Below, piece after piece: positions 14,901-57,724 of a DNA stretch of 64,000 bases. Position 1 is the stretch's first letter. Each line of letters opens with the position of its first letter. Position numbers and translations under genes: made by a program. This DNA is from Fibrobacterales bacterium (GTDB lineage Bacteria > Fibrobacterota > Fibrobacteria > Fibrobacterales > JAOPTW01), in the NCBI GenBank assembly GCA_051532055.1, contig JAOPTX010000042.1, positions 111,101 to 175,100 of the forward strand, read 5' to 3'. Below the pieces are notes generated by a model, which saw only the letters and a list, made by a program, of their open reading frames with translations, was not told where the DNA came from and did no database searches.

Positions 14901-15552
14901 TAGCACCAGTCAATTGTTATTACATCTCGCCTACGAAAACCGAGATTCTACGGATAGCAGTGTCGTTCAATTTAGTGATTCACTTTTTAGTATCTATAAT
15001 ACTGCTGTATTTTGGCTTGATGAGACTAAAAAAAGGTGGGTTGAGCAACAATCAGTAGTACAACCAGATCTAACGATTGAACAACCAACAATACTTCCTA
15101 AGAAGAGTTTAACTTCAACATCTTCGAATAAAGAAAATGAACGGGCGCCTCACAACCAATTTAATGCTCTAACCTATTCAAACCACTTTTCAGTCTATAC
15201 TATTTTTGCAGTTAAGCGATCTATAGAACCATTTGGTGATTTTCTCATATATCCTTCCCCCATAATAACATCAAGTGAAAACCCCGATAAACAAAAGGCC
15301 CGAATAAGTTTCTCTATTACCGATAAAACATCGATAAACCTTCGAATTTACTCCAGAACTGGCAAATTAGTCTGGAAATATGATAGAATAGAAGAGCCAG
15401 TAGATGGGTTAAAGAATGAAATCATATGGGATTGCAAAAATTTGGATGACTACCTTGTTGGGAATGGATACTACATCGTTAAGATACGTGCTAAATCGGA
15501 AGCAAATAATAAGGTCTACATACAAAAGCAGTTAATTGCAGTGATAAAATAA
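8956..15552 (+). CDS. Giant secreted surface protein, full-length paralogue of 544..7302
   Basis: WTQTDWSGGSGQ N-terminus, Gly-rich head, FN3-like repeats colinear with 544..7302 (shared SFHxDQRED, VYSYGxLxY), NHFSVYT and the same CTD. Confidence 0.8.
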   Translation: MNRVFSTSCLMRNLFIGLFVGFYGPLTAANTHWTQTDWSGGSGQNIWSNSTQYGSDDGLIKTSITNQLSIENSINTGTGTIDLIVSLDSTVINEYSAVIGSPSAGSFTIDVSNGSLFQNGSEILIHQTQHADSAGNYEFHTVVSKVGNTLNLDSGLIHTYYSGTDNVTVSSTAQVVSVPHYNSVTINNGVTMESREWDGVTGGIVIFRTKETVTLNGYIDVDGQGFRGGNCGTCGDAAWGTQGEGHTGIGGNSVVANGSGGGGGYGPSGIGGEPGAGGGHAFAGSSPASYGAPSQPIGGVAVGDPQLSKILFGGGAGAGGDNDNGTPFPQYVNGGGIVILFAKTIVDARITSKGEDGVFSSGAGGVTGGGAGGAILLSAKTITTQSVDASGGAATPGSSPDIGGAGSVGRIRIDVETCTGCTTTPTPVENIIAVADSAVLLSSIYAFNNSDYYGPYRINWEFTDNGGSVDVWIRTASTTGSIPGEPWVPVIKNARTDFNTGFSNSDAYVQYKVTLTKGSADSPIFEEINIELGEKQTPLTAPVRLYLGNDVLFTSEDVRSPGDNLSWSQDTTFPSNFLSYELFISPNANYSTILYQGNVGGDTLVSLDTLTLSSALQDNTPYYWAVRSKDVDNVVSTYTSLGNRFIYNSINQPPPIPAIYTNSGIALTATQPLYFKSQDPDSLGNQPDQLTYRIELDTDPAFGSIDVTHTTQDTTPLTGSIAGLVNATNYFWRVWTEDDSSAVSSKTTGTHWFTYIHSNSPPSAISLTLFIDDTEFFGDSLIRWNKSIDPEGNPITYIIEGRHNTFGDTLLYATILSDTALTLNQLIDSNDITTAVSEFNDRDFVIRVKARDSYQLESIVSDWKPVHFNQINDVPSAVTITTPLDSLKLRPPEKIRYSASFHSDQREDIFYEVELGADPHFIASLSKDTVPEDSTSVPLQNLGGHSTLTINNFYYLRVAAFDANGNKASSSPVRTFQYSIDSITPPLPLSLGMDSLFASGNERMKSDTLAWSWSRVYSYGYLEYTLQISSDSLFTTPLISLTNYSDTSVIIQNLPNVTALTENKRYFWRVKEIIPAGAYSEYTDVSNFFVLNTTNDKPLTISSFSPSVSAGEPPFLTSDSLLKFITVDPDTLGITPDKLSYTIQISQNSGFTPVLTTISGVTENEYLLGSIPELQDTQIYYWRVFATDNHGLRSDTTIGTHYFEYSLTNAAPSSVFFKNLPDSAERGGSDLLEWNKSIDPDAHTVSYVIEGVSDTIVFTRELYTIVPDTSLTLDSVLSHNTLSVTDYDDKIYFVRIYSRDQYNARSVPSAWQTLFINLENDIPTAVSLKKPLDDSSAIAESEGIVFSKSKHSDHLESFIYILEIAEDTSFTQLISVDTLSSTEDSLGFYDMNGSLSLEKDIFYHVRVRPIDRAGNAPEWSAPKSFQYITSNGRPGIPELISPIDTVKYFLPRDTLYWGGVTDGDGDAFWYEVYIVNIDEQPTNKTQKSIAFKTGVDTTQLALNALVNYRNLQSHTKYRWIVQAKDIYNAPSGYATEGIFTFRSTRPDDAVIIAPKDSAVANLSNPFYWHPAHDVDLGVDDELLYELLISKSESFDTKDIVLQDTIISDTLVALTDLPSFSNVPDDQWYYWKVYTIDRHGLRSEGGIAEPFFFNLGNQAPTAPVDLTMGDGDSLFYAFEELKWTGSDPDPQDIPYLVYDIQIDDSHTFASPDFIRYGVTGETNVALNTFSGHLRMIPGHRYYWRVIAQDSEGLLSPFSDDSTASFVFMPSDSSLFEIPNVRTINSSVLTSFDTLEWHQPLFDDVSYRARIYSLSGDTLNTIVFKGGVDSISKIALSSLLPDTLYQDEHYYFWDIIAFSNTTQPEYGPLKENLYFYTGNRFKSQNISATRAWLTGPDSTLIQSADSLFTIVIPNNAFTDTVGIVMQTVPKDTSAIIDSTTKALVSLVTYANKALASNRKLFPLGQKVFSVEAHDLATDTVVQPDSTSQLLLHLAYENRDSTDSSVVQFSDSLFSIYNTAVFWLDETKKRWVEQQSVVQPDLTIEQPTILPKKSLTSTSSNKENERAPHNQFNALTYSNHFSVYTIFAVKRSIEPFGDFLIYPSPIITSSENPDKQKARISFSITDKTSINLRIYSRTGKLVWKYDRIEEPVDGLKNEIIWDCKNLDDYLVGNGYYIVKIRAKSEANNKVYIQKQLIAVIK

Positions 15553-37450: not shown

Positions 37451-38626
37451 TTATTCATGAGTCACCCAAAAATCCCATACTTTTACTTCTCCATAATTTT
37501 CGGGATCACCACTCGAGTCACCTTCTTTTGATGAGTTACTCTGCGTATAATTTCCCACTTTAAAATAGGTCTCATCGTATGATAAATCCATTACATAATC
37601 CGTATCATCACTTTTAATAAGATATGATTCCGCAACTCCATCATCATACAATTTATTGAGCTTTCCATCTTCACTGTAATATACGTAATGCTTTCCATCG
37701 ACTACCTTAAAAATAACTTCGTGGATAGTCCCGAGTGCATAGTCATTCTTAATAGTCAGGTCTTCCTGTAAATCGCCTCCATTAAAGCTCAAGAAAAGGT
37801 GTGTCCCTTCAAGCCTCAGGACCATTGCATCGTCTATTCCTTCGGTTTTATTTCCATGTATTTGTGTCGCAACGAGATGGTCTTTGACTATGGGTAAGTG
37901 TGTTATAGCTTGTTTTACGTATATAACATGTGTCCCATCAGTAGTCCAATACACATCTTCCTTGCCGTCATCTGTTCGCTCTCTCAGTTCTGAGCGAATA
38001 TAGGGGGAGTTTGGTGTTGAATTGTTGTCATCCTTAATAGGGGAGTAGAAAACAATGGCATCACCATCAACATAATAGTACTCGTTTTTTACATCTTTTA
38101 GATCCTTAATTTCCGATCCATCAGGGAAGGTAATTTTCCATTGTTCAAAATTTCTCATTAATGTTGCGGGGCTCGCTCCTGATTCCCAATCACCTGAACC
38201 GATAGCAGTCATTAAGACACCATTACTCGAAGAGCGACTGGCATCAGAAGAATCCATACTGCTTTGAATATCGGTATCACTCGATGGCACATCATCATTT
38301 GATAAGTCACCTTCTATTGGCATCTTTGAATTACTCGAAAGCATGCCACCGCTTGAGGTAGAGAGGCCACTCGATTCATTTTTTTTACTCGACGATTCAG
38401 TATTAATCCTTTCAAATGAACTACTGGAATTATCATCCTCACGAGAAGATTCTGCAGTATTATCTTCAAAATACTTTATATCAGAACTAAGGATTATTGC
38501 TGAATTACTCGAATTTCCATCGGAACTTGCTATATCGCTTCGGGTAGTCGTATCTCCACATCCAACAATTATTGTCGCTACACCTATAAAACCAAGACAT
38601 TTCTTAGTTAAGTTACTCTTTCGCAC
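37451..38626 (-). CDS. Polysaccharide lyase family 7 (alginate lyase-type) lipoprotein
   Basis: Lipobox IVGC, Ser-rich linker; PL7 motifs RSELRE, QIH, YFKVGNYTQ; AAGGAG before GTG. Confidence 0.85.
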   Translation of the reverse strand: MRKSNLTKKCLGFIGVATIIVGCGDTTTRSDIASSDGNSSNSAIILSSDIKYFEDNTAESSREDDNSSSSFERINTESSSKKNESSGLSTSSGGMLSSNSKMPIEGDLSNDDVPSSDTDIQSSMDSSDASRSSSNGVLMTAIGSGDWESGASPATLMRNFEQWKITFPDGSEIKDLKDVKNEYYYVDGDAIVFYSPIKDDNNSTPNSPYIRSELRERTDDGKEDVYWTTDGTHVIYVKQAITHLPIVKDHLVATQIHGNKTEGIDDAMVLRLEGTHLFLSFNGGDLQEDLTIKNDYALGTIHEVIFKVVDGKHYVYYSEDGKLNKLYDDGVAESYLIKSDDTDYVMDLSYDETYFKVGNYTQSNSSKEGDSSGDPENYGEVKVWDFWVTHE

Positions 38627-38870: not shown

Positions 38871-41800
38871 TTATGGGCAACCAACTTGACCACTACAAGG
38901 ATCTGAAGTCCCTTCGGTGAGCCAAATGTTGTCAATATAGACGCTATTAGTACCGGTAGCACCGATATTAAAAACAATACGAGCATCAGCAGTTTCAGTC
39001 ATGGTAAAAGTGTAGCTGTAACGAGCCATACTTGTACCGAGTACTGATCCATTACCAATATTCGCATAATCGCTCCATGGGCTTCCATCGGTCTCTACTT
39101 TGATTTTAGCTATGCGATTAACTGAAGCACGAGCATCAAATGCGAAGGTATAGGTAACGCCATTTTGTAAAACAAAATTATCCTGGGATGGCTGAATGTT
39201 CCAATCAGAAGTTCCTGGGTCTGATATAGCTACTTTGTACGCACCACCTGAAACTGAACAGGTCGCTGCTCCGCCCCAAATATTACACATCCAATCAGTA
39301 GTTCCATTTGAGAAATCGCCATTGTTCAAAATATTAACTGCAGGCACTGCATCTGTAGTTCCTGTAACGCTATTACTAAACGCAACAGAGGCATTACCTT
39401 CTGCATCTTTAGCTTTCACAGTGAAACTATAGGCTGATTCAGCATTAAGGCCTGTTACAGTATAACTGCTGCTACTGGTCGTTGTAAGGAATACGTTATC
39501 GCGATAGACATCATAGCCTGTAACAGCAACGTTATCTGTTGCGCTATTCCAGTCAAGGCTGATTGCACTTGAAGTAACACCCGTAACTACAAGTCCAACA
39601 ACAGTACTTGGTGCTTCAGTATCAGGAATAACTGGAACAAAGCGAACCCAATTCAAGTTCTGACTTCCATTACCAAAAGAGAGTTGTACCGTATGGATAT
39701 CACCATTATCTATTGAAAATACCTCAGATGTCCCAGTTTTCCAGGTCTGATACTTATTTCCACTTCCGGTATAGGTACTGCTTGCTTTAGTGTAAGTTGT
39801 TTTAGTAGCACCATCAATCTTGATTTTTATTATCCGGTTAGTACTCCAAGTAGCGTGTCGTACTTCAACCTTCCAAAGCCCTTCAGCAAGGGTTAGGTTG
39901 TCGTATTGGGTCCATCTATCAGTTGAAATCCAACCAATATTTAATCCGCCACCGACATCATCAGTACCTTCTGTTTGAATTGACGCATGTTTTGAAGAAT
40001 AGTCTTCCGCTTCAATAAGAAGAGCTACTTGTGTAGGTTGAGCATCAGTAGTAACCACTATTGGTGTACTATGAGTAGATTGATTCCCTGCAGCGTCTTC
40101 TGAGTTTACCGTAATAACATATTCAGTCTCTTCATTCAAGCCTTGAATTGAGGCGATAGTTTCGGGACCAACAGTCTGAGAATATACACCATCTATAAAT
40201 ACATTATACCCAAATACTCCAACATTGTCTGTTGACACTGCCCAAGATATTGATAGGGACGAGGTACCAGTTGCCTCTCCTGCAACAGAAACCGGAACTG
40301 TAGGTGCTTCGGTATCGTTATCGGTGTTTGCTATTGCAATAGCACTTGCTACAGAGCGATTTCCAGCAGCGTCCTGAGCAATAACATGATACTCATATCT
40401 TGTGTTATGAAGTAAGCCCGTAATCTCGTATGATGTTACGGTTCCAAGACTGACGAGTAAATCATTATGCGTATACACGTCATACCCTACAACACCGATG
40501 TTATCTGTTGACGCATTCCACTCTAGGTTGATTGAATGCATACCTGTTGCAGTTGCAATAGTCGCCGTTGGTGCCGTTGGAGCCTCAGTATCAGGAGGTG
40601 TATCAGTAGTTACAGTAGCCACATTACTTACAGTAGACTTGTTACCCGCTGCATCAGATGCAATTACAGTAATAGCATAAGAAGTCTCAGCCGTAAGTCC
40701 AGTAACAGATGAAGAAATAGTGGTCACTGATTTGTTAAAAACACCATCGACATAGATATCATAACTGCTCACACCAATATTATCGTTAGCCGCAGACCAT
40801 GATACAGAAACTGACGTTGTCCCGGTAGACGAAGCGGTTACTGATGTTGGTTCAGTTGGTGCTTCAGTATCGTCATCTGTGGTTGCCATTGCTGTAGCAC
40901 TTGCCACAGAGAAATTACCCGCTGCATCTTTTGCAACAACATGAAAAGTATACATGGTATTGTGCAGTAGATTAGTAATTTCATATGACGTTACCGTTCC
41001 TAAACTTACGAGTAAATCACTACCCTGGTACACATCATAACCAATTACTCCAACATTGTCAGTTGAAGTATTCCAAACAAGATTGATTGAATACATGCCT
41101 GTAGCAGTTGCAATTGCAGACGTCGGTGCTGTTGGCGACTGAGTATCAGGAGGGTCTAATGTAGTAACAGACATGCCTTGGCTTACTGTTGATTCGTTAC
41201 CTGCAGCATCAATTGCTTTAACCGTTATGGTATAAGTCGTCGCAGGGGTTAATTGATTAACCACTGCAGAAGGGGTAGTAACGGATGTATTGAATAAACC
41301 ATCAACAAATACATCGTAGCTTACCACACCAACATTGTCACTTGACGCAGACCATGTTACCGCAACACTATATGGATCCATAGAAGCGGCAGCAACATTT
41401 GTTGGAACCGTAGGTGCTTCTTCGTCACCTGCAGTTACAATCACAACAGCAGCGCTCTGAGGAGAATGATTACTCGATGCATCTATTGCAACGATAGATA
41501 TTGTGTTGCTTGTACCAACAGGGAGACCCGTGATACTCGTCGTAGTAATAGGACCTACTGATTTTTTGAGTACACCATTTACATAAATACCATATCCAGC
41601 GATTTCATTGTTGTCCGACGCTTCGCTCCATGATAGTAGTGCAGAAGATACACCGTTCAATGATGCTGCAAGGTTTAAAGGAGTGGTAGGATTTTCTGTA
41701 TCTCCGTTACCACAGCTACTTTCTACTGCGAAAACTACATTATCTATGATAACATCTGAAGTACCGCGTCCACCAAATTTAAAACCAACTTTAGCTTGAG

Positions 41801-43571
41801 TATACGCACTGCCAGAAGTAAACGTATGTGAGTAGTCACGCATAGAGGTTGTAACTGAGTGTACTCTTGAATTGATACTCGCGTATGGAGCACCATCTTG
41901 CTCTATCATAAACTCAACATCACGATTAGAGGTGGCACGTGCACTGTATTTAACAATATAGCGCGTGTTACTCCAAATATCAGTGCTGTTCCAGTATTGA
42001 ATTTGCCAATTGGCACCTGCAGTTGTGATATTTGCATACAATTCATTATTACCAGTGCTAAATGTTGCACTTGCACCAGAGGCATCAACCCAATTGTTCC
42101 ACCCAGCAGAACCGGTTGAAAAGTTACCATTATCGAGCTGGTTATTACACGATTCATTGCTAAATGAAGGGATAGTGATACGTGCATAAGATCTATGAGT
42201 ATTACCATCATTATCAGTTACTTTTAATCTAATAGTGTGAATTCCCTCTGAAAGAGAGAGTGCAGGGTTTTGAGATGTGGCAACCGTTACACCATTATCT
42301 TTCCATTGATAGCTTACAATATGTCCATCATCAGACGCAACACCAGTAAACTGAACTATTTCACCAGCCGCACCATCAGTGTCGAATACTATCTGATCAT
42401 CACCTGCATAACCCGTTGGTCTACCCGGAGCTTCACAAGGGTCACACGTCTTATTGTTGTCTTTTTCTTCGTTCAAAAAGTCTTTAGTATAGCGTCCCAT
42501 ATATCCAGGACCTTCAGCTAATACAGTAAACTGATCATCTTCAAACATAATAGGTCTAAAACTATTATCAAATACCCATGCAGTAAAGCTCAAGTTGTTC
42601 GCTTTAATATAATTTTTAAGAGAAACACCATAGGCGTCCTGATCGATAGGAGTTGTGGTAACACAATCTTCGATAGGGCATGGTGCGCCAACTTCATAAC
42701 CAAATTCAGTTACTATAATAGGGAAGTTGTTTACGGTTGATCCTACATATTGGTTCAGTGATGGATCACCTTTCCAGTGAGATCCATAAATATGGAGTGC
42801 ATAGCCAATACGTTCTTCAGGAGCAGGGTCTTGTATTGGGTTACTATTAATACCAGCGAGTTCATGAGTATATACCGGACTTCCTACAACAAGAAAAGTC
42901 TCTGTAGCACCCATATCATTACGGATATATTCTACGAGAGGCTGGGCAAGATCATCTTTAAAGTCATCCCAAAGAATACTCCCTCCAGAAGATCCACCAG
43001 GCCACACGTGATTATCGAGGTCAGATACTGGCTCATTAAACAGTTCAAAGAGTACATTAGGATTGTCTCCATACCGATCAGCAGCCCATCCCCAAAATAG
43101 TTTTGTTGCATCTATATTTGAGAGAAAGTAGTTCCAGTTATTTGTGGAGTGGTAATCAATAAGGCAATAAATATCTTGGAGAACACATTCATCAACAGCA
43201 GCATCAATAAAATCAGTCCAACCATCAGGATCAGTGTTCCAACCACCGAATCCCCATCCCATATCATCAACATGGACTGGAATACGAATAATGTTTGAGT
43301 GCCAACCCTTAGATGCATCTGATGCAAGGCGGAGGGTAGCGCGAAGCTGATTGAGGGGTGTATTGGTTAAGTCATTACTGTAATGACCTTCTACCGTATT
43401 GACATTTGTTGCGGTAAATTTTGCATCTGCAATAGCAACGCCTCTCAAGACGACAACGTTACCATCTGAATCACAGATGTCCTTGCCGCAACTCTGAAGA
43501 CGGGGTTTTGCCAATGTAACTGACACACCGAGTACTAATAGCGTTGCAATCACTGTTTTGAATAATTTCAA
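38871..43571 (-). CDS. Multimodular GH5 glycoside hydrolase: GH5 - PKD-like - CBM4/9-like - 6xFN3 - CBM6/35-like - FN3 - CBM4/9-like
   Basis: IRIP, IDYH, ELFNEP (acid/base), HIY, VTEFG (nucleophile); seven DxxxPx-initiated FN3 repeats; IEAEDY module; two NG(N/D)FS modules; TTG at 43571 follows AAGGAG. Confidence 0.88.
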   Translation of the reverse strand: MKLFKTVIATLLVLGVSVTLAKPRLQSCGKDICDSDGNVVVLRGVAIADAKFTATNVNTVEGHYSNDLTNTPLNQLRATLRLASDASKGWHSNIIRIPVHVDDMGWGFGGWNTDPDGWTDFIDAAVDECVLQDIYCLIDYHSTNNWNYFLSNIDATKLFWGWAADRYGDNPNVLFELFNEPVSDLDNHVWPGGSSGGSILWDDFKDDLAQPLVEYIRNDMGATETFLVVGSPVYTHELAGINSNPIQDPAPEERIGYALHIYGSHWKGDPSLNQYVGSTVNNFPIIVTEFGYEVGAPCPIEDCVTTTPIDQDAYGVSLKNYIKANNLSFTAWVFDNSFRPIMFEDDQFTVLAEGPGYMGRYTKDFLNEEKDNNKTCDPCEAPGRPTGYAGDDQIVFDTDGAAGEIVQFTGVASDDGHIVSYQWKDNGVTVATSQNPALSLSEGIHTIRLKVTDNDGNTHRSYARITIPSFSNESCNNQLDNGNFSTGSAGWNNWVDASGASATFSTGNNELYANITTAGANWQIQYWNSTDIWSNTRYIVKYSARATSNRDVEFMIEQDGAPYASINSRVHSVTTSMRDYSHTFTSGSAYTQAKVGFKFGGRGTSDVIIDNVVFAVESSCGNGDTENPTTPLNLAASLNGVSSALLSWSEASDNNEIAGYGIYVNGVLKKSVGPITTTSITGLPVGTSNTISIVAIDASSNHSPQSAAVVIVTAGDEEAPTVPTNVAAASMDPYSVAVTWSASSDNVGVVSYDVFVDGLFNTSVTTPSAVVNQLTPATTYTITVKAIDAAGNESTVSQGMSVTTLDPPDTQSPTAPTSAIATATGMYSINLVWNTSTDNVGVIGYDVYQGSDLLVSLGTVTSYEITNLLHNTMYTFHVVAKDAAGNFSVASATAMATTDDDTEAPTEPTSVTASSTGTTSVSVSWSAANDNIGVSSYDIYVDGVFNKSVTTISSSVTGLTAETSYAITVIASDAAGNKSTVSNVATVTTDTPPDTEAPTAPTATIATATGMHSINLEWNASTDNIGVVGYDVYTHNDLLVSLGTVTSYEITGLLHNTRYEYHVIAQDAAGNRSVASAIAIANTDNDTEAPTVPVSVAGEATGTSSLSISWAVSTDNVGVFGYNVFIDGVYSQTVGPETIASIQGLNEETEYVITVNSEDAAGNQSTHSTPIVVTTDAQPTQVALLIEAEDYSSKHASIQTEGTDDVGGGLNIGWISTDRWTQYDNLTLAEGLWKVEVRHATWSTNRIIKIKIDGATKTTYTKASSTYTGSGNKYQTWKTGTSEVFSIDNGDIHTVQLSFGNGSQNLNWVRFVPVIPDTEAPSTVVGLVVTGVTSSAISLDWNSATDNVAVTGYDVYRDNVFLTTTSSSSYTVTGLNAESAYSFTVKAKDAEGNASVAFSNSVTGTTDAVPAVNILNNGDFSNGTTDWMCNIWGGAATCSVSGGAYKVAISDPGTSDWNIQPSQDNFVLQNGVTYTFAFDARASVNRIAKIKVETDGSPWSDYANIGNGSVLGTSMARYSYTFTMTETADARIVFNIGATGTNSVYIDNIWLTEGTSDPCSGQVGCP

Positions 43572-43969
43572 ATTTTTTCTCCTTGATTTGTATGTGTATG
43601 CACCAGTCTTATGCAATAGGTACCAGCATGACAATTATTTTTGTTCATAGCATTAATACACTGCATTGGATAGAAGTATCTTGATTCAGAAATATCTGAG
43701 TATATATATGTGGCATGCATTCAAGTATTCTAAGTGTATTGAATGCAAACTTCTAACCGCGTGTCCCAAACGTAGTGCTGCTTACAAATATACTACAGTT
43801 GATTTTAATTAAAAGATCAGAGCAGCGTTGTAGACAACTATTTGTATTAACTGAAAGTGACTAATGTAAAATCGGACTACATATTGATAGTTTTTCGTAG
43901 TTTACCCTAGGTAAGCAGGGGTATTATGATTATGTGAACGAGCTAAACAGGGAGCTGAATAGTTATACA

Positions 43970-45487
43970 TTATTCCTCAAAATCAACCTGCGGGACCCAC
44001 GTAGCATCGTCACCATACGTACCAAGCATATCGATGAGTGTTCCATCGTTACCATTGACAGAGCCATCTTTGACAATCGTCATCTGTAAGGGATTATACA
44101 CAAAATCATAACTGAGCACTAATCGAGTTGTATCACTCAATTGTTCAGTTGAGTGATACATATCTCTTTTTATTTCTGAAGCAGTAAGTGCTCGATTCCA
44201 AATGCGCGCATTATCCATACGCCCATCAAAGACCCCGTCTCTTTCCACAGTGCTCTGACCCAAGTAATTAACCGATCGTTCGACCGCATCAGGATTTGCA
44301 AAAATTCCACGGTCTTTAGATCTAATCAATTCACCATTTTTATAGAACGAGATAAGGCCACTTGGAGTTACGCATAGGGCAATATGCATCCATTCACCTA
44401 CAAAAAGAGCGTTATAAACTTCTTCTATTATCCATGGCCTATGTTCTCCAGATGGATCAGTATTAGTCATTGCATATCTGAGGTTATACATTCCATTCAC
44501 CTCCCGAAGCCCAAACGCAGCAGCATAGTCATCATTTGGACCTTTCGATAGGTGAAACAAGTGTATTATTGTGTCCATTACATCCCATCTTACCCAAGTT
44601 TCGAATGTAATACCATAGGTTGGCCAATCGTAATTCATATCACTCTCTATTTTTACATGCTCAGGCCTGCCATTAAAGTTTAACACTGAAGGTACCAGTA
44701 GATTACTCGACGACGAAACACTCATTGATGATAGTATCATGACCTCTACAGATGATGACGATTGGGATGATTGGGATGATAGGGAGGAGGATGATAGGGA
44801 AGAGGATAATTCCAACAGTGAGGAACTTGAACTGATTGATGCACTCGATGCATCAATAGTGTCAATAGTTGTGACATAATTGGTATCACTCGTTACCACG
44901 TCGACACTTTCAACATTCAGTAATACCTCAGAACCTTGTGCATCTCCAGAAAAATAGAACTCTGGATACACACCCGTAGGCAGCTTATCGATGACTACTG
45001 TAGCTATGGAATCAACTGAATACACCACACTACCTACACGGGTAGAATTTTTAACATATACCTGTCCATTTACAATGGGGGTATAATCAGATAAGGTGAT
45101 TACAATGGTACCGGTACCTTGAAGGGTGTCAGATGATTCTAAATCACTGGTATCATTAATAAGAAGTGAGGAATTGTAAAAGCCCGTTGATGCATTTTCA
45201 TTAATCACTTCAAGGGCATAGAGTCCGCTATCCAAATTATCAAAGGCATAGTGACCTTCTGTATTACTGAGAACTGTTTTACGAAGTATATTGAGGCTAT
45301 CTACTACTGGACTGTAGCCGTCTGATATAAGTGATACGGTTACACCGTTTTCTGGAGTTCCATTAGCGGTATACAGAGTTCCTGCAATTTGACCACCTGT
45401 TTCAATATCTGTAATACCAGATACATCGTCGCTATTAGATGAACATGCAAATAAAAAAAAACTAATCGTCAGCAATATACTTTTCAT
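43970..45487 (-). CDS. Lipoprotein with carboxypeptidase-regulatory-like Ig domain, Ser linker and LamG/concanavalin-like domain
   Basis: Lipobox LFAC; EGHYAFDNL.SG.Y; TFETWV, WMHIA, YKNG, FDGRMDNARIWNRAL. Confidence 0.8.
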   Translation of the reverse strand: MKSILLTISFFLFACSSNSDDVSGITDIETGGQIAGTLYTANGTPENGVTVSLISDGYSPVVDSLNILRKTVLSNTEGHYAFDNLDSGLYALEVINENASTGFYNSSLLINDTSDLESSDTLQGTGTIVITLSDYTPIVNGQVYVKNSTRVGSVVYSVDSIATVVIDKLPTGVYPEFYFSGDAQGSEVLLNVESVDVVTSDTNYVTTIDTIDASSASISSSSSLLELSSSLSSSSLSSQSSQSSSSVEVMILSSMSVSSSSNLLVPSVLNFNGRPEHVKIESDMNYDWPTYGITFETWVRWDVMDTIIHLFHLSKGPNDDYAAAFGLREVNGMYNLRYAMTNTDPSGEHRPWIIEEVYNALFVGEWMHIALCVTPSGLISFYKNGELIRSKDRGIFANPDAVERSVNYLGQSTVERDGVFDGRMDNARIWNRALTASEIKRDMYHSTEQLSDTTRLVLSYDFVYNPLQMTIVKDGSVNGNDGTLIDMLGTYGDDATWVPQVDFEE

Positions 45488-51371: not shown

Positions 51372-52175
51372 TTGTTAAAGAATAATTCTTCGGGTATTTT
51401 AATTTCAATCATATGTAGTTTGATTCTACTTTATTCTCAACCTGTGGCAAAAAACAAAAAAGTACTCGTAAATGCATGGGGAGAAAACTGGGAACCATTT
51501 TGGATAAAAAATGAAAAGGGGTATTTTGGTATTGATCTCGAACTTTTACAAGAAGTGGTTGATTTAGCTGGGTTTGAGTTACAATACACAAAACATAGTG
51601 TCCCCTGGAAGCGACACTTGCATAGTTTAAAAACAGGTACTATCGACTTGGCTACAAGTGCCTCTAAAACCAAAGAGAGAGAAGTGTATGCTTATTTTAC
51701 GATACCATATCGGCATGAGCGTGTGGGGCTCTATTTTAGAAATGATGATGTAAATAAATATGAAATTCAAAAAATAGAAGACCTTTTGAACTACCCGAAT
51801 CTCAAAGTTGGCATCGAGTCCGGAGTGTATTACGGAAGACGTATCGATTCACTATTGAACACTATTAAACATCGTGTTGAGGCAATAACCGATGAAAATG
51901 ATTCAAACAGAAAAAAACTTATCTACAAGCGAATTGATTGCTATTTAGGGTACCCTACTTCTGAAATAGCTTATAAGGACACAAGTGACATTGTTGAATT
52001 ACACACAATGCCACTTATTACTACCGGAGACATCCATATTATGCTCAGTAAAAAGAATAATACTTCTGAAGAATTTAATGCTCTTAATAACGCTCTAAAA
52101 GAAATTATGACCAATGGAACCTATGATAGAATAGTCAAGAAATATAGTGAAAAATATGGCGTGGCTATCTGGTGA
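51372..52175 (+). CDS. Amino-acid-type substrate-binding protein (family 3), stand-alone
   Basis: WEPF, GIDLEL, PWKR...LK.G.ID, T.ERE..AYFT.PY, L.YKRID, NGTYD.I..KY. Confidence 0.85.
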   Translation: MLKNNSSGILISIICSLILLYSQPVAKNKKVLVNAWGENWEPFWIKNEKGYFGIDLELLQEVVDLAGFELQYTKHSVPWKRHLHSLKTGTIDLATSASKTKEREVYAYFTIPYRHERVGLYFRNDDVNKYEIQKIEDLLNYPNLKVGIESGVYYGRRIDSLLNTIKHRVEAITDENDSNRKKLIYKRIDCYLGYPTSEIAYKDTSDIVELHTMPLITTGDIHIMLSKKNNTSEEFNALNNALKEIMTNGTYDRIVKKYSEKYGVAIW

Positions 52176-52229
52176 AGCAATAAAACATTGTATCGCAATG
52201 AAACCTAAACCTGTAATTCTAACAACTCT

Positions 52230-52632
52230 AAACATTGCCTGATAAAGAACAGGCGGAAGCCCACCATTAGCCTTATGCGGTCGTTCATTATTATAACTCC
52301 ATAACCACTTTGTGGCTAGGTGTTGTGCATGTTCAAAAGTTTCAAAAAGGTTCAAATCAAAACATTCATGGCGAACTGTACGATTAAACCTCTCAACATA
52401 TGCATTCTGAGTTGGTTTCCCTGGTTGAATATGTAATAACACTACATCATTATCTTCTGCCCACTTTCGCAGTACTTCACAGATGTACTCCGGCCCATTA
52501 TCACATCTGATAGAGTTTGGTTTACCCCTCCATTCTATAACCTGTTCAAGGCTTCGTATAGCTCTTCATACCATACTCACGGCAAAGCTCTTGCACCTTA
52601 GTTCCAGCTTCTGCTTGTCGTAATATGGCCAT
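52230..52632 (-). mobile_element. Internally deleted IS3-family (IS407-like) remnant
   Basis: OrfA piece MAILRQAEAGTKVQELCREYGM (from 52632) abuts, at ~52566, the OrfB C-terminal piece RAIRSLEQVIEWRGKPNSIRCDNGPEY...IQPGKPTQNAYVERFN...YNNERPH; ends approximate, no IRs recognised. Confidence 0.85.
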
Positions 52633-52768
52633 GAAAGCAGACGAGAGCACATTCAAGCAAGACCTACAAGCGATAAGAGGGCTGAAGGTAGATCTACCTC
52701 AGTAACGCCCTCAAATTAATAGTAGACCGCCACTCATATTGCAGCGGTCGATTTGATACTATAATTTA

Positions 52769-53938
52769 TTACCTCGCTACCGACCACGTATCGGTATGAT
52801 CAAAGTTACCATCAAGGTAATTCCATGTAATCGTAGTATATTTTATTTTTATAGTTTCTAAAAATGGTGCATCTGAAGGATTTTCTAGTGGTTGACTTGT
52901 ATTTTGAACACTCACAATCTGGCAATCTTCTAGTTCAATTTCATAAAGCTTCACTAGATGGTTTTGAGGGTCATAAAAGTCAATTTTAATATTAGGAATG
53001 TTTTTTTGCGGGCTGTTATACATATGCATGTATGAAGAGGCTCTGTCGAACTCTTTCTTAATGGTAATAAATTTATGCTTTGTTATAGATGATGATTCAG
53101 AATCAACACCTATTGTATGGTCAAAGTCAAGTAATGCGATTGACCCCTCTAAACCCGCAATTTCAACACCACCTATAATGTTATCCATTGTCATAAACAT
53201 GTGTGATGGACGGTCTTCTTTTACATTTTTTTGATACCGATAAGAAAGGTATCCATCATAATAGGTCCATGTCATTTCTTCATAATCAAGGTAAAACGCT
53301 TCTTCGTCTCCATCATTAGTATTGTTTTCAATTTTTTTGATGATTGCATTTTTTAGATACACACGATACATTATTCGAGTACTCTCTTCATTTTCAAAGA
53401 AGTAGAAAAAGAGCCATGGTATTTTCTCACCTGTTGAATACTTAGAGAGTAGGTTATGAGATGCTTTATCAACATCTTTTGAAGCTTTAATAAGGCTAGA
53501 ACCCTCATTATCTTCAACTGAACCCATCGTATAGTCAAGATTGAATATTCGAGTTGACCCTTCCCAGCCTGGAGCCTCGACGCTACCGACAAATCCGTAA
53601 GCACGCATGTATATTTTTTTACCCGAGAATTTTCCAGGAATTGCATTTTCTAAATCTGAAACTTCAAGATTACCTGAGATGTCGGCAACAGCATAGCCTG
53701 TGGCGGTACATACTTTAATTGTTTTTTCATTTTCAATATAGTAGAACTCTCCTCGATTTGCGCTAGTGCACGATGGCAAATTGGATGTATTGCCAACTAC
53801 TTTGGCCCCAAGGGCTGTAGCAGTTTCTTTATTATCTTGTTCAAATATCTGGGCTGCTGGAGCGGTATTATTCTGGTCACACCCGAGTAATAGTAGCGTC
53901 AGTGCACAGGCACAGCTTATTAACGTTAATCTTTTCAT
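52769..53938 (-). CDS. Lipoprotein with two tandem Hcp/TssD (T6SS tube-like) domains
   Basis: Lipobox LLGC; two copies of GxVE..G.EGS....K..D(K/R)AS....L....I...E...Y....W.Y.DG; second copy ends ITWNYLDGNFDHTDTW; ATG at 53938 follows AAAGGA. Confidence 0.8.
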   Translation of the reverse strand: MKRLTLISCACALTLLLLGCDQNNTAPAAQIFEQDNKETATALGAKVVGNTSNLPSCTSANRGEFYYIENEKTIKVCTATGYAVADISGNLEVSDLENAIPGKFSGKKIYMRAYGFVGSVEAPGWEGSTRIFNLDYTMGSVEDNEGSSLIKASKDVDKASHNLLSKYSTGEKIPWLFFYFFENEESTRIMYRVYLKNAIIKKIENNTNDGDEEAFYLDYEEMTWTYYDGYLSYRYQKNVKEDRPSHMFMTMDNIIGGVEIAGLEGSIALLDFDHTIGVDSESSSITKHKFITIKKEFDRASSYMHMYNSPQKNIPNIKIDFYDPQNHLVKLYEIELEDCQIVSVQNTSQPLENPSDAPFLETIKIKYTTITWNYLDGNFDHTDTWSVAR

Positions 53939-54566
53939 GAGTTTCAATCCTTTGTTGATCGGTTAATTTAGGTTACGGATTGAAACAATAGTTATAACCA
54001 AAGATGGTAACTAGGCACAGAGAGTGTGGAAATATGATTTCCGTTTAAGATGGTGTTTAAGAATCGAGTGATTGGAAAGATGAGACATATGATGCCGGTG
54101 ATTTAATTCGATGTGTTGGCTGTTTCGGTTGTTGCGCTTCAAAGGTGTTCTTTATAAGTTGTAGAATGGGGGAGGGCTTCTTTACTACCGATAGTGCTAG
54201 TTATACATTGGGTGCCGGCAATCAACCAAAAGGCTTTGATCAAAGTAAATCGTGATTTTTATATTATTATTATTATTATTAAAAAAATAAGGGACCGCAA
54301 TTACACGACCCCTCATAATTCTATGAATGGATTAATCATATATCCGTATCACCCTTATTCTTCCTCTTATGCCTCCTCTTCAATCACTGGTTCTATATTC
54401 ATTCCTGCTTGAAAATACATTTTTCTACATCTCAACAAAGAGCCAGAAATGTATAAATATGACAATCTACATCTCAAGCATACAATATAATGTTATTCGT
54501 TCCATTCAATAATGGCAACACCAAATAAATGTGCAAAGTTAATACCGTGTATGAAGGCTACAACAC

Positions 54567-56858
54567 CTATGGTGAGATTGCGAATTCAAAGGTGTCGGCC
54601 ACTACTACATCAGCATCGTTAGTGAGTTCTAAAATGTAATTATGCAAACCAGTATCATTAGGAACCTCATAGTCAATTGAGTATTGATTTGAATAAGCAT
54701 TAATTGAGTCAGCATCATCCCCAGTTCCATCAAAAAGAACAATTCCACTGTCAATATACAGGTGCATTCTAGTGAACGAACTATATAGATAACTATCGTA
54801 CGCTCTAAACCTAACGTTAACGGTATCTCCAGCCCGAACACTCAGGGAGGTATTCGTTTCAAGGTTCCCACCCAGAGTACTATCTCGCACAGTTATATAT
54901 TTTGAATACTCCTGCTCGACGCCCAAGGGGTTAGTTACCTGTACCCTTAATTCTTCACCGACCGTAGTTACATGCCCTTTGCACGTATCACCAACAATAG
55001 CTTTTGTTGAGTCTCCCATAGAACACAGCACCTCAAACTCACCATTAAGGGTATCGGTGATTGTTACCACATAGCTTAATGTATCGTTAATTCGATAAAA
55101 TGAAGGCATTAGAGACGTGTCATTATTGAGTATCACGTCACTAAACGTGACCTCGTATTCCGGGTATGATACTTCTATAGAACTCACTAGAGAATCAACC
55201 ACTTCGACAAATCCCAATGAGTTTCTCTCTTCTCCATGGCAGCGAATAAGATGCACCCAGCCACTCACCTCCTTCAGAATATCATAAAAAACGAACCCAC
55301 GCTCTGATACGCTACCCGAGTATTCAATTCTTCGGAGACCATCAATGGTACTACTATCAACCACCACAAGATCAATAATTTCACTTCCCGACCGGGCACC
55401 CACATCACTTAAATACGTGTTTGAGATATGTACATAGTCGCTGTCCATAACTGTTTGATATACACACGAACTTCTCATATCTTCTGTATAGTTGTAGCCT
55501 GAATAAAAAGGATTTTTAAATTCGTGACCGCTACTCACTTTTGAATACGTCCACGAATCAGGAAATGCCATTTGTATAGTGTCACTATCAGTGATACCAG
55601 CAAGGCGAATGGTATCAAACACATGCGGTTCTATTAAAACCGTCTGTCTCATAGTATCTGTAACAGCATCAACATCCTGGACTTCGAGAAAAAAGGTGAT
55701 TGAATCAACTCCTTGGGGAATGATATATTCAACAGTAACTGTGGTGTCTTGTAGCAACTCCTCACGAACCAGCAAACCCTCTAAGAGTGCTAACGTATCT
55801 TCTTCGGAGTTCCATAAGGCAAAATGCCCTAATCCGTTATATTGAATATTCTTGTACCCTCGTGCCTCTACATTAATTCGTGCATTGGGGTGAATTGTTG
55901 ATTCTGCAATGGTTACTATGGTGGTTGGCTCACTGACCTCATATTCCACCGCAAGTAAAAAGGTATCGCCCGGAATATTGGTCAAAGGATTAATACTGTA
56001 TATTACTATCGTATCCAACTCACTACTATTTCCGGTAACCAAACCTGAACAAGTATTTTCTTCGGCAGTTATTATTTGATTCATAAATTCACACTTCAAG
56101 AGACCGTTCATTTCCATAGGGTCGGTATTATTGAGCCGTATCGCAAAGGTGTCTCGCACGGTCATCGTAATGTTGGGGTCGCCTCCATCAGAGCCCCAAC
56201 CTCGATTGCTATCATAAATTAATGCAGCACTGGTATCGTTCATAAACCACCCAGAGTTATATGATAGCTCCACGGTAGAGAGAGTTATATCGATAGATGA
56301 ACGCACCTGATCAAGGTCAGGGAGTTCTATAACCTTTGATGTATCACACATAAAACGAATAAGATATCCTTTTCCCTCCAGAGGAATGACGATATCATAG
56401 GCACGAACCTCAGTTTGGTGATGCAGTGCACTATAGCGTAAGGTATACCCTTGTGCAAATTGAGTCGAATCAATCAACTGCACATTACTTAACGTATCAT
56501 CTCTTGTATCATTGTTTGCATTAATAAGTATGTGACTGGGGGCTGTATACTCAGAAACAGTAAGGATACTTAATCCCACACCTGTATAGAGGTATTCCGT
56601 GTCAAACGACAACACTTGGGGTATAAACGCATAAACGTTTTGACTGCCCTCTAAGGTGTTCCACACTGTGGGAAGTTCCAGATGTACCGTATCATTTGAA
56701 TAGCCGGTGTACCAAACTATTCCACGCTCACTGGAAGGTGCCCCAGGAACAAACGCTTCATAATGGGGAGTCGATACAAAACAACCGAACCACACCAGAG
56801 AGCACAACATAAGGCTTATCATCAATACACTTGAACGAATCATAGTAACACCTCCCAA
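54567..56858 (-). CDS. Lipoprotein made of two diverged ~380-aa internal repeats
   Basis: Lipobox WFGC; repeat pairs DTVHLELP/DTIQMAFP, YDIVIPLEGKGYLIRF/YDILKEVSGWVHLIRC, SSIDIT/SSIEVS, NDTS/NDTS; true start probably the second Met (~56843). Confidence 0.65.
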   Translation of the reverse strand: MGGVTMIRSSVLMISLMLCSLVWFGCFVSTPHYEAFVPGAPSSERGIVWYTGYSNDTVHLELPTVWNTLEGSQNVYAFIPQVLSFDTEYLYTGVGLSILTVSEYTAPSHILINANNDTRDDTLSNVQLIDSTQFAQGYTLRYSALHHQTEVRAYDIVIPLEGKGYLIRFMCDTSKVIELPDLDQVRSSIDITLSTVELSYNSGWFMNDTSAALIYDSNRGWGSDGGDPNITMTVRDTFAIRLNNTDPMEMNGLLKCEFMNQIITAEENTCSGLVTGNSSELDTIVIYSINPLTNIPGDTFLLAVEYEVSEPTTIVTIAESTIHPNARINVEARGYKNIQYNGLGHFALWNSEEDTLALLEGLLVREELLQDTTVTVEYIIPQGVDSITFFLEVQDVDAVTDTMRQTVLIEPHVFDTIRLAGITDSDTIQMAFPDSWTYSKVSSGHEFKNPFYSGYNYTEDMRSSCVYQTVMDSDYVHISNTYLSDVGARSGSEIIDLVVVDSSTIDGLRRIEYSGSVSERGFVFYDILKEVSGWVHLIRCHGEERNSLGFVEVVDSLVSSIEVSYPEYEVTFSDVILNNDTSLMPSFYRINDTLSYVVTITDTLNGEFEVLCSMGDSTKAIVGDTCKGHVTTVGEELRVQVTNPLGVEQEYSKYITVRDSTLGGNLETNTSLSVRAGDTVNVRFRAYDSYLYSSFTRMHLYIDSGIVLFDGTGDDADSINAYSNQYSIDYEVPNDTGLHNYILELTNDADVVVADTFEFAISP

Positions 56859-57724
56859 AAACCTGCCAAACCAATTTTCATATACATACCGCCATCACTA
56901 GTAAGTTTGGCTTCAGGAACTTCAAATGCTCCAATCGGCTTGAAGCCAAAGGAATCCATTCCAATTTCAAATTCAATCCCAACAAAAGAGGTTATCCGCT
57001 GTATCATTCCAAACCCAAAAAAGAATCCCTCACTATTTTCCATTATTTTAGGGGCTCCCTGTAGGTACACATTTTCTTTGAGCAACACTTCATCGGTTCG
57101 CCAGACATACGCCCTTCCAAGGAGCAAATACAAAAGGGTTCCATGGGTAACATCATCTACTCGGTCTCTTGAAATGTACATGGAGAGCATTAAAGAGGTT
57201 ATCAGTGTCTCATTATGAACCTTCCATTGGTCAATAGCAGAGACATCTGCAAAAATACTCTCTTTAACCGTATATTGATTGTAGAGGTAGTCGACACGCA
57301 ACCCAAAGATTTTATAGAATAGAAGGTACGCCGAAACACCAACGGGCTCCTTAGAAATCTCTACAATATCATCGGGCCCATATGTTGATGACGCAGCCTT
57401 TGCTGGCTCATAGCCACCACTCGCATTCCAGGTCGCTTCTTTGGCCTTGGAATCACTCGTGTATAATCCTTTAAACGAGGCGTGAACACTTAACCCAAAA
57501 TCTATCGTGCACCGAGCATATTCCAATTTACAAAGGGGTACTTTGGGTGCCTGAGTAGCGTTTTCACTGTAGCCGTAGTTAGATTTTGTATTCTCAGTAT
57601 CTCGATCGGAATCAGGATAGCGGTTATTAGTTGTTCCTCGTTCTCTGGCATCAACATGTATAGTCAAAAGAACCGAAATGATACACACTACTGAACGTAT
57701 ACCCATGATATATTCCTCTCTCAA
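56840..57724 (-). CDS. Putative small outer-membrane beta-barrel protein
   Basis: Signal peptide; alternating strands FGLRVDYLY, GFFFGFGM, VGIEFEIG, YMKIGLAGFW; overlaps the downstream lipoprotein gene. Confidence 0.55.
   Translation of the reverse strand: MREEYIMGIRSVVCIISVLLTIHVDARERGTTNNRYPDSDRDTENTKSNYGYSENATQAPKVPLCKLEYARCTIDFGLSVHASFKGLYTSDSKAKEATWNASGGYEPAKAASSTYGPDDIVEISKEPVGVSAYLLFYKIFGLRVDYLYNQYTVKESIFADVSAIDQWKVHNETLITSLMLSMYISRDRVDDVTHGTLLYLLLGRAYVWRTDEVLLKENVYLQGAPKIMENSEGFFFGFGMIQRITSFVGIEFEIGMDSFGFKPIGAFEVPEAKLTSDGGMYMKIGLAGFWEVLL

Follow-up and report, generated by a model that had tools for sequence, protein, structure and literature searches.

Gene and domain layout

The 64,000-nucleotide stretch of DNA that was analyzed, here called the window, belongs to contig JAOPTX010000042.1 of a Fibrobacterales bacterium (assembly GCA_051532055.1). 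Its reverse strand carries a gene for a 389-residue protein in which a predicted lipoprotein signal and a small, cysteine-paired head module precede two tandem domains of the Hcp/TssD family that belongs to type VI secretion systems (T6SS). A first-pass annotation of the window had read the gene as that of a tube protein repurposed as an exported lipoprotein. The gene and its parts, in window coordinates, are as follows.

52769..53938, (-) strand: tandem-Hcp lipoprotein gene, whole; 389 residues from ATG, stop codon TAA at 52769-52771
53879..53938, (-) strand: signal peptide and lipobox, residues 1-20, LLLG-C; Cys20 is predicted to be lipidated and to begin the mature protein
53675..53809, (-) strand: head module, a small beta domain at residues ~44-88 that contains the cysteine pair C57/C77, common to a lineage-specific lipoprotein family
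53225..53620, (-) strand: Hcp-like domain 1 (D1), residues ~107-238, strongly diverged
52772..53212, (-) strand: Hcp-like domain 2 (D2), residues ~243-389

According to the list of open reading frames and the translation, the 389-codon frame is intact. The ATG at 53938 is preceded at a distance of 9 nt by the sequence AGGA. If translation began instead at a TTG three codons farther upstream, the residues MKL would be added, for a protein of 392 residues. In-frame start-like codons were found at position -2 (TTG), position 1 (ATG), codon 54 (TTG) and codon 111 (ATG); the TTG at codon 54 falls within the invariant LPxC motif of the head, and the ATG at codon 111 stands at the beginning of D1. 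Since the lipobox and the head are conserved in 21 homologous N-termini, the sequence upstream of codon 111 is coding. The only candidate starts that keep the head module are ATG 1 and TTG -2, and every such start therefore also keeps the signal peptide. The concern that the real start might lie downstream of the lipobox was examined in this way, and no usable start was found 3' of the signal peptide.

Lipoprotein signal and head module

The N-terminus consists of MKR, a hydrophobic stretch and LLLG-C with the cysteine at residue 20. It fits the lipobox pattern as coded for this analysis, a PROSITE-style rule after PS51257 (positively charged n-region, hydrophobic h-region and, in the first ~35 residues, [LVI][ASTVIL][GAS]C). 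Cys20 is invariant in all 21 aligned homologous N-termini (alignment A5), and the genome encodes both Lgt (PF01790, E 8.4e-60) and LspA (PF01252, E 2.4e-34). The Sec/signal peptidase II signal of the first-pass annotation is borne out by these features, on which the assignment as an exported, extracytoplasmic lipoprotein, and not a cytoplasmic tube subunit, is well supported at the level of the sequence. Because it is exported, the protein cannot be the tube of the organism's T6SS. The residue at position +2 after the lipobox cysteine is aspartate, which acts as an inner-membrane retention signal in E. coli; the rule may not hold in this phylum.

The small module with a cysteine pair that had been noticed behind the signal proved to be real and conserved, L54, P55, C57 and C77 being invariant, together with C20, in the same 21 N-termini. 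AlphaFold2, supplied with this 21-row alignment, folded residues ~41-88 into a small beta domain with a predicted local distance difference test score (pLDDT) of 86-95. A disulfide between C57 and C77, formed in an oxidizing compartment, would fit the conserved pair. A homologue search with region 30-100 returned the query alone; homologues of the head are present as six paralogues in this genome, with more in a genome of the same genus, elsewhere in the order and in metagenomes. In all six paralogues of this genome, collagen triple-helix repeats (PF01391) follow directly after the head, and four of the six carry a Fib_succ_major domain (PF09603) at the C-terminus. As collagen repeats are obligately trimeric and stand directly behind the head in these six proteins, it is a reasonable inference that the head is the globular base of trimeric collagen stalks and has a trimerizing role. 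The best fold match of the head among 48,161 solved chains was the human collagen XV trimerization domain (3n3f_B), a weak match with Z 4.4, a root mean square deviation (rmsd) of 3.0 Å and 45 of 53 residues aligned. Further matches were to collagen XVIII (Z 3.4) and to many neck domains from trimeric phage tailspikes (Z about 3).

The two Hcp domains

Both family profiles matched the whole protein in two stretches, as the first-pass annotation had expected and far beyond chance: Pfam T6SS_HCP (PF05638) with E 5.8e-31 and 107.9 bits against a cut-off of 23.5, and TIGR03344 (TssD) with E 1e-26 and 93.8 bits against a cut-off of 58.9. In a six-frame search of the genome, each domain was recognized by PF05638 on its own and above the cut-off, D1 at window positions 53261-53611 (E 7.6e-11, 44.4 bits) and D2 at 52817-53197 (E 9.2e-19, 69.9 bits); the separate matches lie within a few codons of where the two tandem domains had been drawn before. 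The domains are 28% identical to each other (E 3e-14), their envelopes are only about 4 residues apart, and their identity to the genome's own canonical Hcp is 39% for D2 and 25% for D1. A script-made alignment showed that D1 has lost a conserved histidine and several conserved Hcp residues and that the extended loop is 5 residues shorter in D2 and 8 shorter in D1.

Whole-protein alignments (A1 and A2) placed all homologues on D2 and left D1 and the head uncovered, and the tandem region and the head were therefore folded separately. The AlphaFold2 model of residues 100-389 had a mean pLDDT of 75.6 and a predicted template modelling score (pTM) of 0.55, with D2 at a pLDDT of about 90. The closest solved structure to D2 was Hcp1 of enteroaggregative E. 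coli (EAEC; 4hkh_A, Z 20.4, rmsd 1.6 Å, 139 residues aligned), with about ten further Hcp structures ranked behind it, and Foldseek gave E 2.9e-12 with a TM-score of 0.89 normalized to the target. The ESM Atlas yielded a weak lead, a cluster of 199-residue Hcp-domain proteins mostly from Myxococcota, whose score of 0.77 is below the guide value of 0.9. PHROGs and PADLOC, two libraries that do not cover T6SS immunity, returned zero matches for the protein or four of its neighbors.

Predicted self-association

When three copies of residues 100-389 were folded together, the median score was 0.53 (individual runs 0.48, 0.53 and 0.58), as compared with 0.25 for the best control. Of the proteins solved as pairs, 20 of 30 reached the mark that this prediction passed, as did 1 of 23 solved as single chains; these counts apply roughly, the mark having been calibrated with two copies and other alignments. 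The runs agreed in at least 46% of their contacts, and the partner pLDDT was at least 71. In the predicted geometry, the copies form an open arc in which one copy lies between the other two, and they meet through the canonical side-by-side interface of Hcp. The result is biased to D2 because D1 had no alignment depth in that job. Moreover, Hcp hexamers are among the solved structures, and the model's memory of them may account for the pass, which shows a likeness to Hcp rings and little more. The three-copy fold supports self-association of the protein through D2. The first-pass annotation had proposed a trimeric pseudo-hexamer to be checked with multimer predictions, and such an assembly is plausible; the prediction supports association of the chains, but its confident contacts are D2-D2 and do not alternate between D1 and D2 as in a pseudo-hexameric ring.

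As described in PMC5717097, T5 pb6, hub proteins and T6SS spike proteins build a trimeric, pseudo-hexameric ring from a tube domain that is duplicated in tandem, and PDB entry 9vnd is titled as a solved Hcp2-Hcp3 heterohexamer. Given the collagen context of the head, the precedents of T5 pb6, hub and spike proteins and entry 9vnd, the trimeric pseudo-hexamer is favored. The most likely assembly is a membrane-tethered ring, a trimer being more likely than a hexamer.

Distribution and phylogeny

No orthologue was found among 1.84 billion cluster representatives, where 128 matches reached E values up to 0.001 and the best match other than the query had E 1.4e-13, 35% identity and one domain. The 40 genomes of the genus and the order likewise had none, the same-genus genome having a canonical Hcp only, and contig searches gave none in 185,579 species genomes or in JGI metagenomes. 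Contig searches with two related metagenomic proteins, P0009 against the genomes and P0254 against the metagenomes, also found nothing. In a sample of the phylum, 107 of 251 genomes had an Hcp match (a count that includes the unpublished genome G195), and among the matches listed two Hcp matches in one frame occurred in this genome only. In all searches, a lipobox, the head and two Hcp domains occurred together in this genome only. A fusion of a head lipoprotein with two Hcp domains, the protein is specific to the lineage.

In a maximum-likelihood tree of 57 rows, D2 was sister to P0009 (support 95/80) within a clade that also contained P0035 (99/96). Like D2, these two metagenomic Hcps have a short loop, and their N-termini are signal-like. 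The Hcp of the genus itself fell in another clade (99/94), and D1 sat on a long branch without supported placement. A quick tree of 167 rows gave no supported position for either domain. Approximately unbiased (AU) tests rejected neither D1 and D2 as sisters (p 0.40) nor D2 together with the genus's own Hcp (p 0.44), and do not discriminate between origins of the tandem; the loop shortening shared by D1 and D2 mildly favors an internal duplication. For other tandems the trees were clearer: the domain pairs of P0026 and P0121 and the first two domains of P0069 were sisters within their chains (support 100/96 or better). Because their own domains pair in this way, these tandems arose independently.

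Exported Hcp proteins in other genomes

The first-pass annotation took it that Hcp is always signal-less and suggested a search for further Hcp proteins with signal peptides. Proteins with signal-like N-termini were found, which makes the premise wrong or incomplete. In a set of 123 Hcp-domain proteins (121 matches from the search of cluster representatives, the query and P0129), 64, counting the query, are extended at the N-terminus by a stretch whose hydrophobic segment resembles a signal peptide or membrane anchor, 51 begin with the Hcp domain as canonical Hcp does, and 8 have an extension lacking a hydrophobic segment. The signal-like class was assigned by a hydropathy heuristic, and 64 of 123 is not a family-wide estimate, since the sample was selected by likeness to the query.

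Proteins with Hcp domains are combined with a variety of partner domains. Pfam recognized collagen repeats in P0121 (signal peptide, collagen and two Hcp domains) and in P0100 (collagen and one Hcp domain); the metagenomic proteins P0113 and P0075 combine six Hcp domains with a dockerin and with an Ig-like domain, respectively; and the metagenomic, signal-bearing P0254 has eight Hcp domains in tandem. The idea that copy numbers of Hcp domains divide six was dropped in view of P0254. Simpler forms are P0074, a lipobox followed by Hcp, and P0009 and P0035, a signal peptide followed by a short-loop Hcp. P0026 consists of a signal peptide, two Hcp domains and a tail typical of type IX secretion systems (T9SS), the tail being taken from a precomputed Pfam list. 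Its homologue search returned mostly T9SS-tail matches and one further Hcp-bearing protein, P0129. The T9SS-type tails of P0129 and P0122 scored above the cut-off for FlgD_ig and below it for PF18962 (26.9 and 21.4 bits, respectively, against 27).

Within the phylum of the organism, 12 long Hcp-bearing frames were inspected, of which six look exported and six are signal-less with C-terminal extensions. The exported forms comprise L041, L042 and L043 (signal peptide, then Hcp), L040 (an N-terminal aromatic-rich domain like that of P0056, then Hcp) and L045 and L048 (signal peptide, Hcp and a C-terminal tail), and they stem from the genomes G173, G187, G229, G134 and G100. In the signal-less forms (L044, L046, L047, L049, L050 and L051) the Hcp domain comes first and is followed by a non-Hcp C-terminal extension. 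No T6SS gene was found beside the exported Hcps at the relatives' loci examined. Their neighbors were a GGDEF sensor, a glycoside hydrolase family 10 (GH10) xylanase with the carbohydrate-binding module (CBM) CBM6, a Fib_succ_major protein and a resistance-nodulation-division (RND) efflux operon; the GH10/CBM6 xylanase lies near the L040-type, P0056-like form.

The partner domains confirm an extracellular setting for the exported Hcps. The searches suggest that the protein is one instance of a broader and essentially undescribed class of exported Hcp-fold proteins, linked to Sec, a lipobox, a T9SS-type tail, collagen or dockerin. No description of signal-peptide, lipoprotein, T9SS-linked or tandem and multi-domain Hcp proteins was found in the open-access full-text literature searched. 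A large Hcp survey (PMC8262886) removed PF05638 genes with a PEP-CTERM sorting signal before analysis; from this it follows that PEP-CTERM Hcp genes had been seen and were set aside unexamined in that work.

Genomic setting

Neither the list of open reading frames nor Pfam, run on 17 neighbors, showed vgrG, tssB/C, PAAR or any other T6SS gene within the window. The assembly (5.17 Mb in 181 contigs) has a complete T6SS on contig C1 at about 36-63 kb (loci L075 and L076), where NCBIfam identified TssK, TssL, TssM, TssB, TssC, TssE, TssF, TssG, ClpV/TssH, VgrG and a 155-residue Hcp; TssA was recognized from a 123-residue N-terminal fragment that scored below the NCBIfam cut-off. The statement of the first-pass annotation that there is no T6SS thus holds for the window and the locus and fails for the genome, which has TssA-M and a canonical 155-residue Hcp on C1. 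That the gene lies outside any T6SS locus was confirmed: it is 110 kb into a contig other than that of the T6SS cluster, which has an Hcp of its own. The C1 cluster also contains two paralogous genes of unknown family for proteins of ~350 residues, one after VgrG and the other beside a gene for a 363-residue protein that looks PAAR-like by eye; NCBIfam gave no match for the latter or for the two paralogues.

Two further features flank the tandem-Hcp gene.

54287..54316, (-) strand: terminator-like hairpin with 13 pairs and a T-run, found by a consensus scan only, which closes the upstream gene pair
52095..52700, (-) strand: IS3-type transposase remnant directly 3' of the gene, marking a variable segment

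With the hairpin ending the upstream pair, the tandem-Hcp gene probably forms a transcription unit by itself. An (ATA)n microsatellite at window ~54270-54290 abuts this hairpin. A scan for sigma-70 promoters was at chance level, with 9 found and 8.7 expected. The base composition of the gene gave no clear sign of foreign origin: its content of guanine plus cytosine (GC) is 36.7%, that of the genome 39.7%, and GC at third codon positions (GC3) is 0.297 as compared with 0.301 for the genome's own Hcp. DNA of the gene is present in one public run, labelled marine metagenome and possibly the source of the assembly. No RNA run is among the public runs listed as carrying the gene, and the sole RNA run of that sample contains next to none of its sequence words.

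Within the transposase remnant, rve_3 was matched with E 4e-22 on a 115-residue open reading frame at 52095-52442, and the frame upstream of it is broken. Since 114 bases of the remnant are 98% identical to a contig end in the same-genus genome, the element family was recently active in the genus. The genes flanking the segment are conserved in that genome at 77-79% nucleotide identity, but on different contigs. From ~48.1 to 54.56 kb the window forms a species-specific segment that is almost without counterpart there, the exceptions being the 114-base transposase piece and a short match near 49.5 kb, and the equivalent slot is occupied by an unrelated lipoprotein of 1032 residues.

The upstream pair, at window 54567-57724 on the (-) strand, consists of overlapping genes for proteins of 294 and 763 residues with signal-like N-termini and has 77% nucleotide identity in the same-genus genome; neither protein was assigned to a family by Pfam, PHROGs or PADLOC. 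Farther off, two giant paralogues of 2252 and 2198 residues are encoded on the (+) strand at 544-7302 and 8956-15552. Their N-termini are signal-like and open with a similar motif, a gene for a 550-residue protein stands between them, and further genes for secreted proteins and lipoproteins lie downstream. A 1587-residue glycoside hydrolase family 5 (GH5) cellulase with seven fibronectin-III stretches and CBM4_9, CBM6 and CBM35 is encoded at 38871-43634 on the (-) strand. It adjoins two lipoproteins, one an alginate lyase (37451-38626) and the other with Laminin_G_3 (43970-45487), and the region around it is rich in surface proteins that handle polysaccharides.

Interpretation

We give about an even chance to the reading in which the gene is real and encodes a lipid-anchored Hcp-fold protein that lies outside the cytoplasm and is no part of the T6SS tube, with a head that trimerizes and with D1 and D2 building a tethered ring that serves as a binding or holding scaffold. 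In this model the precursor, to judge from its sequence features, would be exported by Sec, lipidated at Cys20 by Lgt and cut by signal peptidase II. A flexible tether of about 23 residues would lead to the disulfide-bonded head, which would probably gather three chains. The diverged D1 and D2 would then stand side by side in a membrane-tethered ring, likeliest of three chains and six domains, that is, a pseudo-hexamer in the manner of T5 pb6 and gp27/VgrG. Such a ring would most likely act outside the cytoplasm as a scaffold that binds or holds a partner molecule.

Several observations weigh against this model. At its N-terminal end, the signal-peptide call comes from a rule-based pattern and not from SignalP. 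For the head, zero of the 48,161 solved chains reached Z 5, so that the fold match is weak, and a larger related family of the same order has the head without collagen after it. D1 was modelled with low confidence (pLDDT 41-81, pTM of the pair 0.55), although the order of its strands and helices still matches that of D2, and no solved chain in the fold search matches D1 and D2 together, which leaves the packing of the two domains uninformed. In both domains the extended loop is shortened, to 12 residues as compared with 17 in the genome's canonical Hcp, and this could weaken the contacts within a ring. In the three-copy fold, the confident contacts were all between D2 and D2 (construct residues 147-284), with none alternating between D1 and D2. 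A search of 5.8 billion protein clusters returned the query alone and so gave no orthologue on which selection could be judged. The variable segment and the transposase remnant fit a young or dispensable gene, and the locus showed no ligand, partner gene or conserved neighbor that would indicate a function.

An exported lipoprotein of six chains, in which D2 closes a hexameric ring and D1 is stacked as a second ring or splayed, would be a short piece of two-layer tube on six lipid tails. This is unlikely in our view, even though the middle copy of the three touches both others exclusively through confident D2-D2 contacts, as in a homo-hexameric Hcp ring, and D2 is nearer to canonical Hcp than D1 is (69.9 versus 44.4 bits; 39% versus 25% identity). 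Canonical Hcp rings are stacked to form tubes (PMC2944823), and among the other exported proteins are some with one, six or eight Hcp domains, so that two domains times three chains is no general rule. However, the restriction to D2 may stem from an alignment that had depth on D2 only and from the memory of Hcp hexamers in the model, the usual setting of the head is trimeric collagen, the link between D1 and D2 is only about 4 residues long, and in pb6 and gp27/VgrG, according to PMC5717097, tandem tube-fold domains are set side by side. The setting of the gene raises another question, namely whether it is a young chimeric orphan, made of a lipoprotein head and a duplicated Hcp in a transposon-active, lipoprotein-rich variable region and either unexpressed or drifting to loss. 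Zero orthologues in the clusters, relatives' genomes, species genomes and metagenomes searched, the absence of window ~48.1-54.56 kb from the same-genus genome with an unrelated lipoprotein in its place, the transposase remnant directly downstream and the lack of several conserved Hcp residues in D1 all speak for it. It is nevertheless rather unlikely, given that the 389-codon frame is intact and that the head retains all invariant residues of its family. D1 and D2 are deeply diverged (28% from each other; 25% and 39% to the organism's own Hcp), yet both pass the Hcp cut-off and D2 reaches Z 20.4; divergence this deep with the fold retained speaks for long maintenance and against a recent accident. 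In addition, analogous architectures (collagen with two Hcp domains; signal peptide with two Hcp domains and a T9SS-type tail) arose independently elsewhere.

Whether the protein has to do with T6SS attack is a separate matter. As an exported ring it could be a decoy or sponge for incoming effectors loaded in the Hcp lumen, or for the tube tip of an attacker, and would then represent T6SS immunity of a new kind. According to PMC8262886, effectors are bound within Hcp rings by overall fit, and the protein is placed outside the cytoplasm, where many T6SS effectors act. Attacks are plausible, since T6SS is found in the organism itself and in many genomes of its phylum (107 of 251 genomes with an Hcp match, G195 included), and four of the five relatives with exported Hcps (G173, G187, G229 and G134) also have a canonical Hcp match. 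The fifth, G100 (91% complete), lacks a canonical Hcp match alongside its exported Hcp, and the same-genus genome has a T6SS without the tandem-Hcp gene. Pfam found no effector or immunity gene among the 17 neighbors, the relatives' exported Hcps examined were never beside T6SS genes, and dockerin, collagen, T9SS-type tails and GH10/CBM neighbors indicate surface or scaffold roles instead. PADLOC and PHROGs had zero matches, though neither library covers T6SS immunity. We consider a decoy improbable, and quite improbable the more far-reaching proposal that a widespread class of exported Hcps, PEP-CTERM forms included, makes rings or tubes on the cell or outside it and that this protein is a lipid-anchored trimeric pseudo-hexamer derived from a T6SS tube, a counter-weapon that captures effectors or the tube tip and so confers T6SS immunity by structural mimicry. 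For the other roles suggested in the first-pass annotation, a periplasmic or surface channel and the base of a non-contractile tube, the analysis gave no evidence in either direction. Finally, a mis-annotated cytoplasmic tandem Hcp that starts at Met111 and serves the C1 T6SS is hardly credible. There is an in-frame ATG at codon 111, at the start of D1, and the genome does have a complete T6SS; but the upstream part is coding by homology (C20, L54, P55, C57 and C77 in the 21 N-termini), the head folds at pLDDT 86-95, AGGA stands 9 nt 5' of the ATG at 53938, and the gene is 110 kb into another contig while the T6SS cluster has its own Hcp.

In the literature, Hcp figures as a tube subunit of the cytoplasm that lacks a signal and as a chaperone of effectors. 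The gene described here shows the Hcp fold behind a predicted lipoprotein signal, in tandem, and on a head that otherwise carries trimeric collagen stalks. The breadth of the exported Hcp-fold proteins around it is the more interesting result than the single gene. If rings form outside the cell, these proteins would constitute a new family of ring scaffolds, extracellular and of phage-tail ancestry, with possible roles in surface display, in the holding of cargo or in defense against T6SS attack. Exported Hcps that form such rings would also be a caveat for surveys that count PF05638 matches as T6SS tubes.

Relation to known systems

The closest known system is the T6SS tube protein Hcp/TssD, as represented by EAEC Hcp1 (4hkh) and by the organism's own Hcp on C1. 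The same family profile covers both domains, D2 has the same fold, and the side-by-side interface of self-association is predicted here too. In contrast, T6SS Hcp has no classical signal peptide (PMC2944823), whereas the protein described here has a lipoprotein signal. Canonical Hcp is a single domain of about 155-170 residues (155 in the organism's own Hcp), as compared with two domains and a head in 389 residues, and its loop is longer by 5 residues than that of D2 and by 8 than that of D1. It is assembled in the cytoplasm inside the TssB/C sheath and encoded with T6SS core genes, neither of which applies here.

T5 pb6, the phage hub gp27 and T6SS VgrG share with the protein a duplicated tube or hexamerization domain within one chain, and according to PMC5717097 a trimer of these provides six domains. 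They are, however, parts of cytoplasmically assembled injection machines, unlike a Sec-exported lipoprotein; no sequence or structure match to any solved chain spans D1 and D2, and the contacts predicted here are D2-D2.

Specialized Hcps with C-terminal toxin extensions (Hcp-ET type) are likewise multi-domain proteins with Hcp, and the signal-less extended frames of the phylum (L044, L046, L047, L049, L050 and L051) are their counterparts. In these, Hcp is at the extreme N-terminus and the extension is C-terminal and non-Hcp, whereas the protein described here has an N-terminal extension and a second Hcp domain.

The N-terminal part has its nearest relatives in the lipoproteins composed of head, collagen (PF01391) and Fib_succ_major (PF09603), which have the same lipobox and the same head with the invariant LPxC and second cysteine. 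In the present protein, two Hcp domains stand in place of the collagen and PF09603 regions, neither of which was found in it by Pfam. With the exported metagenomic and phylum Hcps (P0009, P0035, P0026, P0121 and P0074) it shares the position of Hcp behind a secretion signal, none of them being orthologous, and P0121 also couples a trimer-forming element, collagen, with two Hcp domains. From the pairing of domains in the tree, the tandem duplication described here is likely independent of those in P0026, P0121 and P0069. The protein belongs to the known Hcp fold family and represents a new exported lipoprotein architecture within it.

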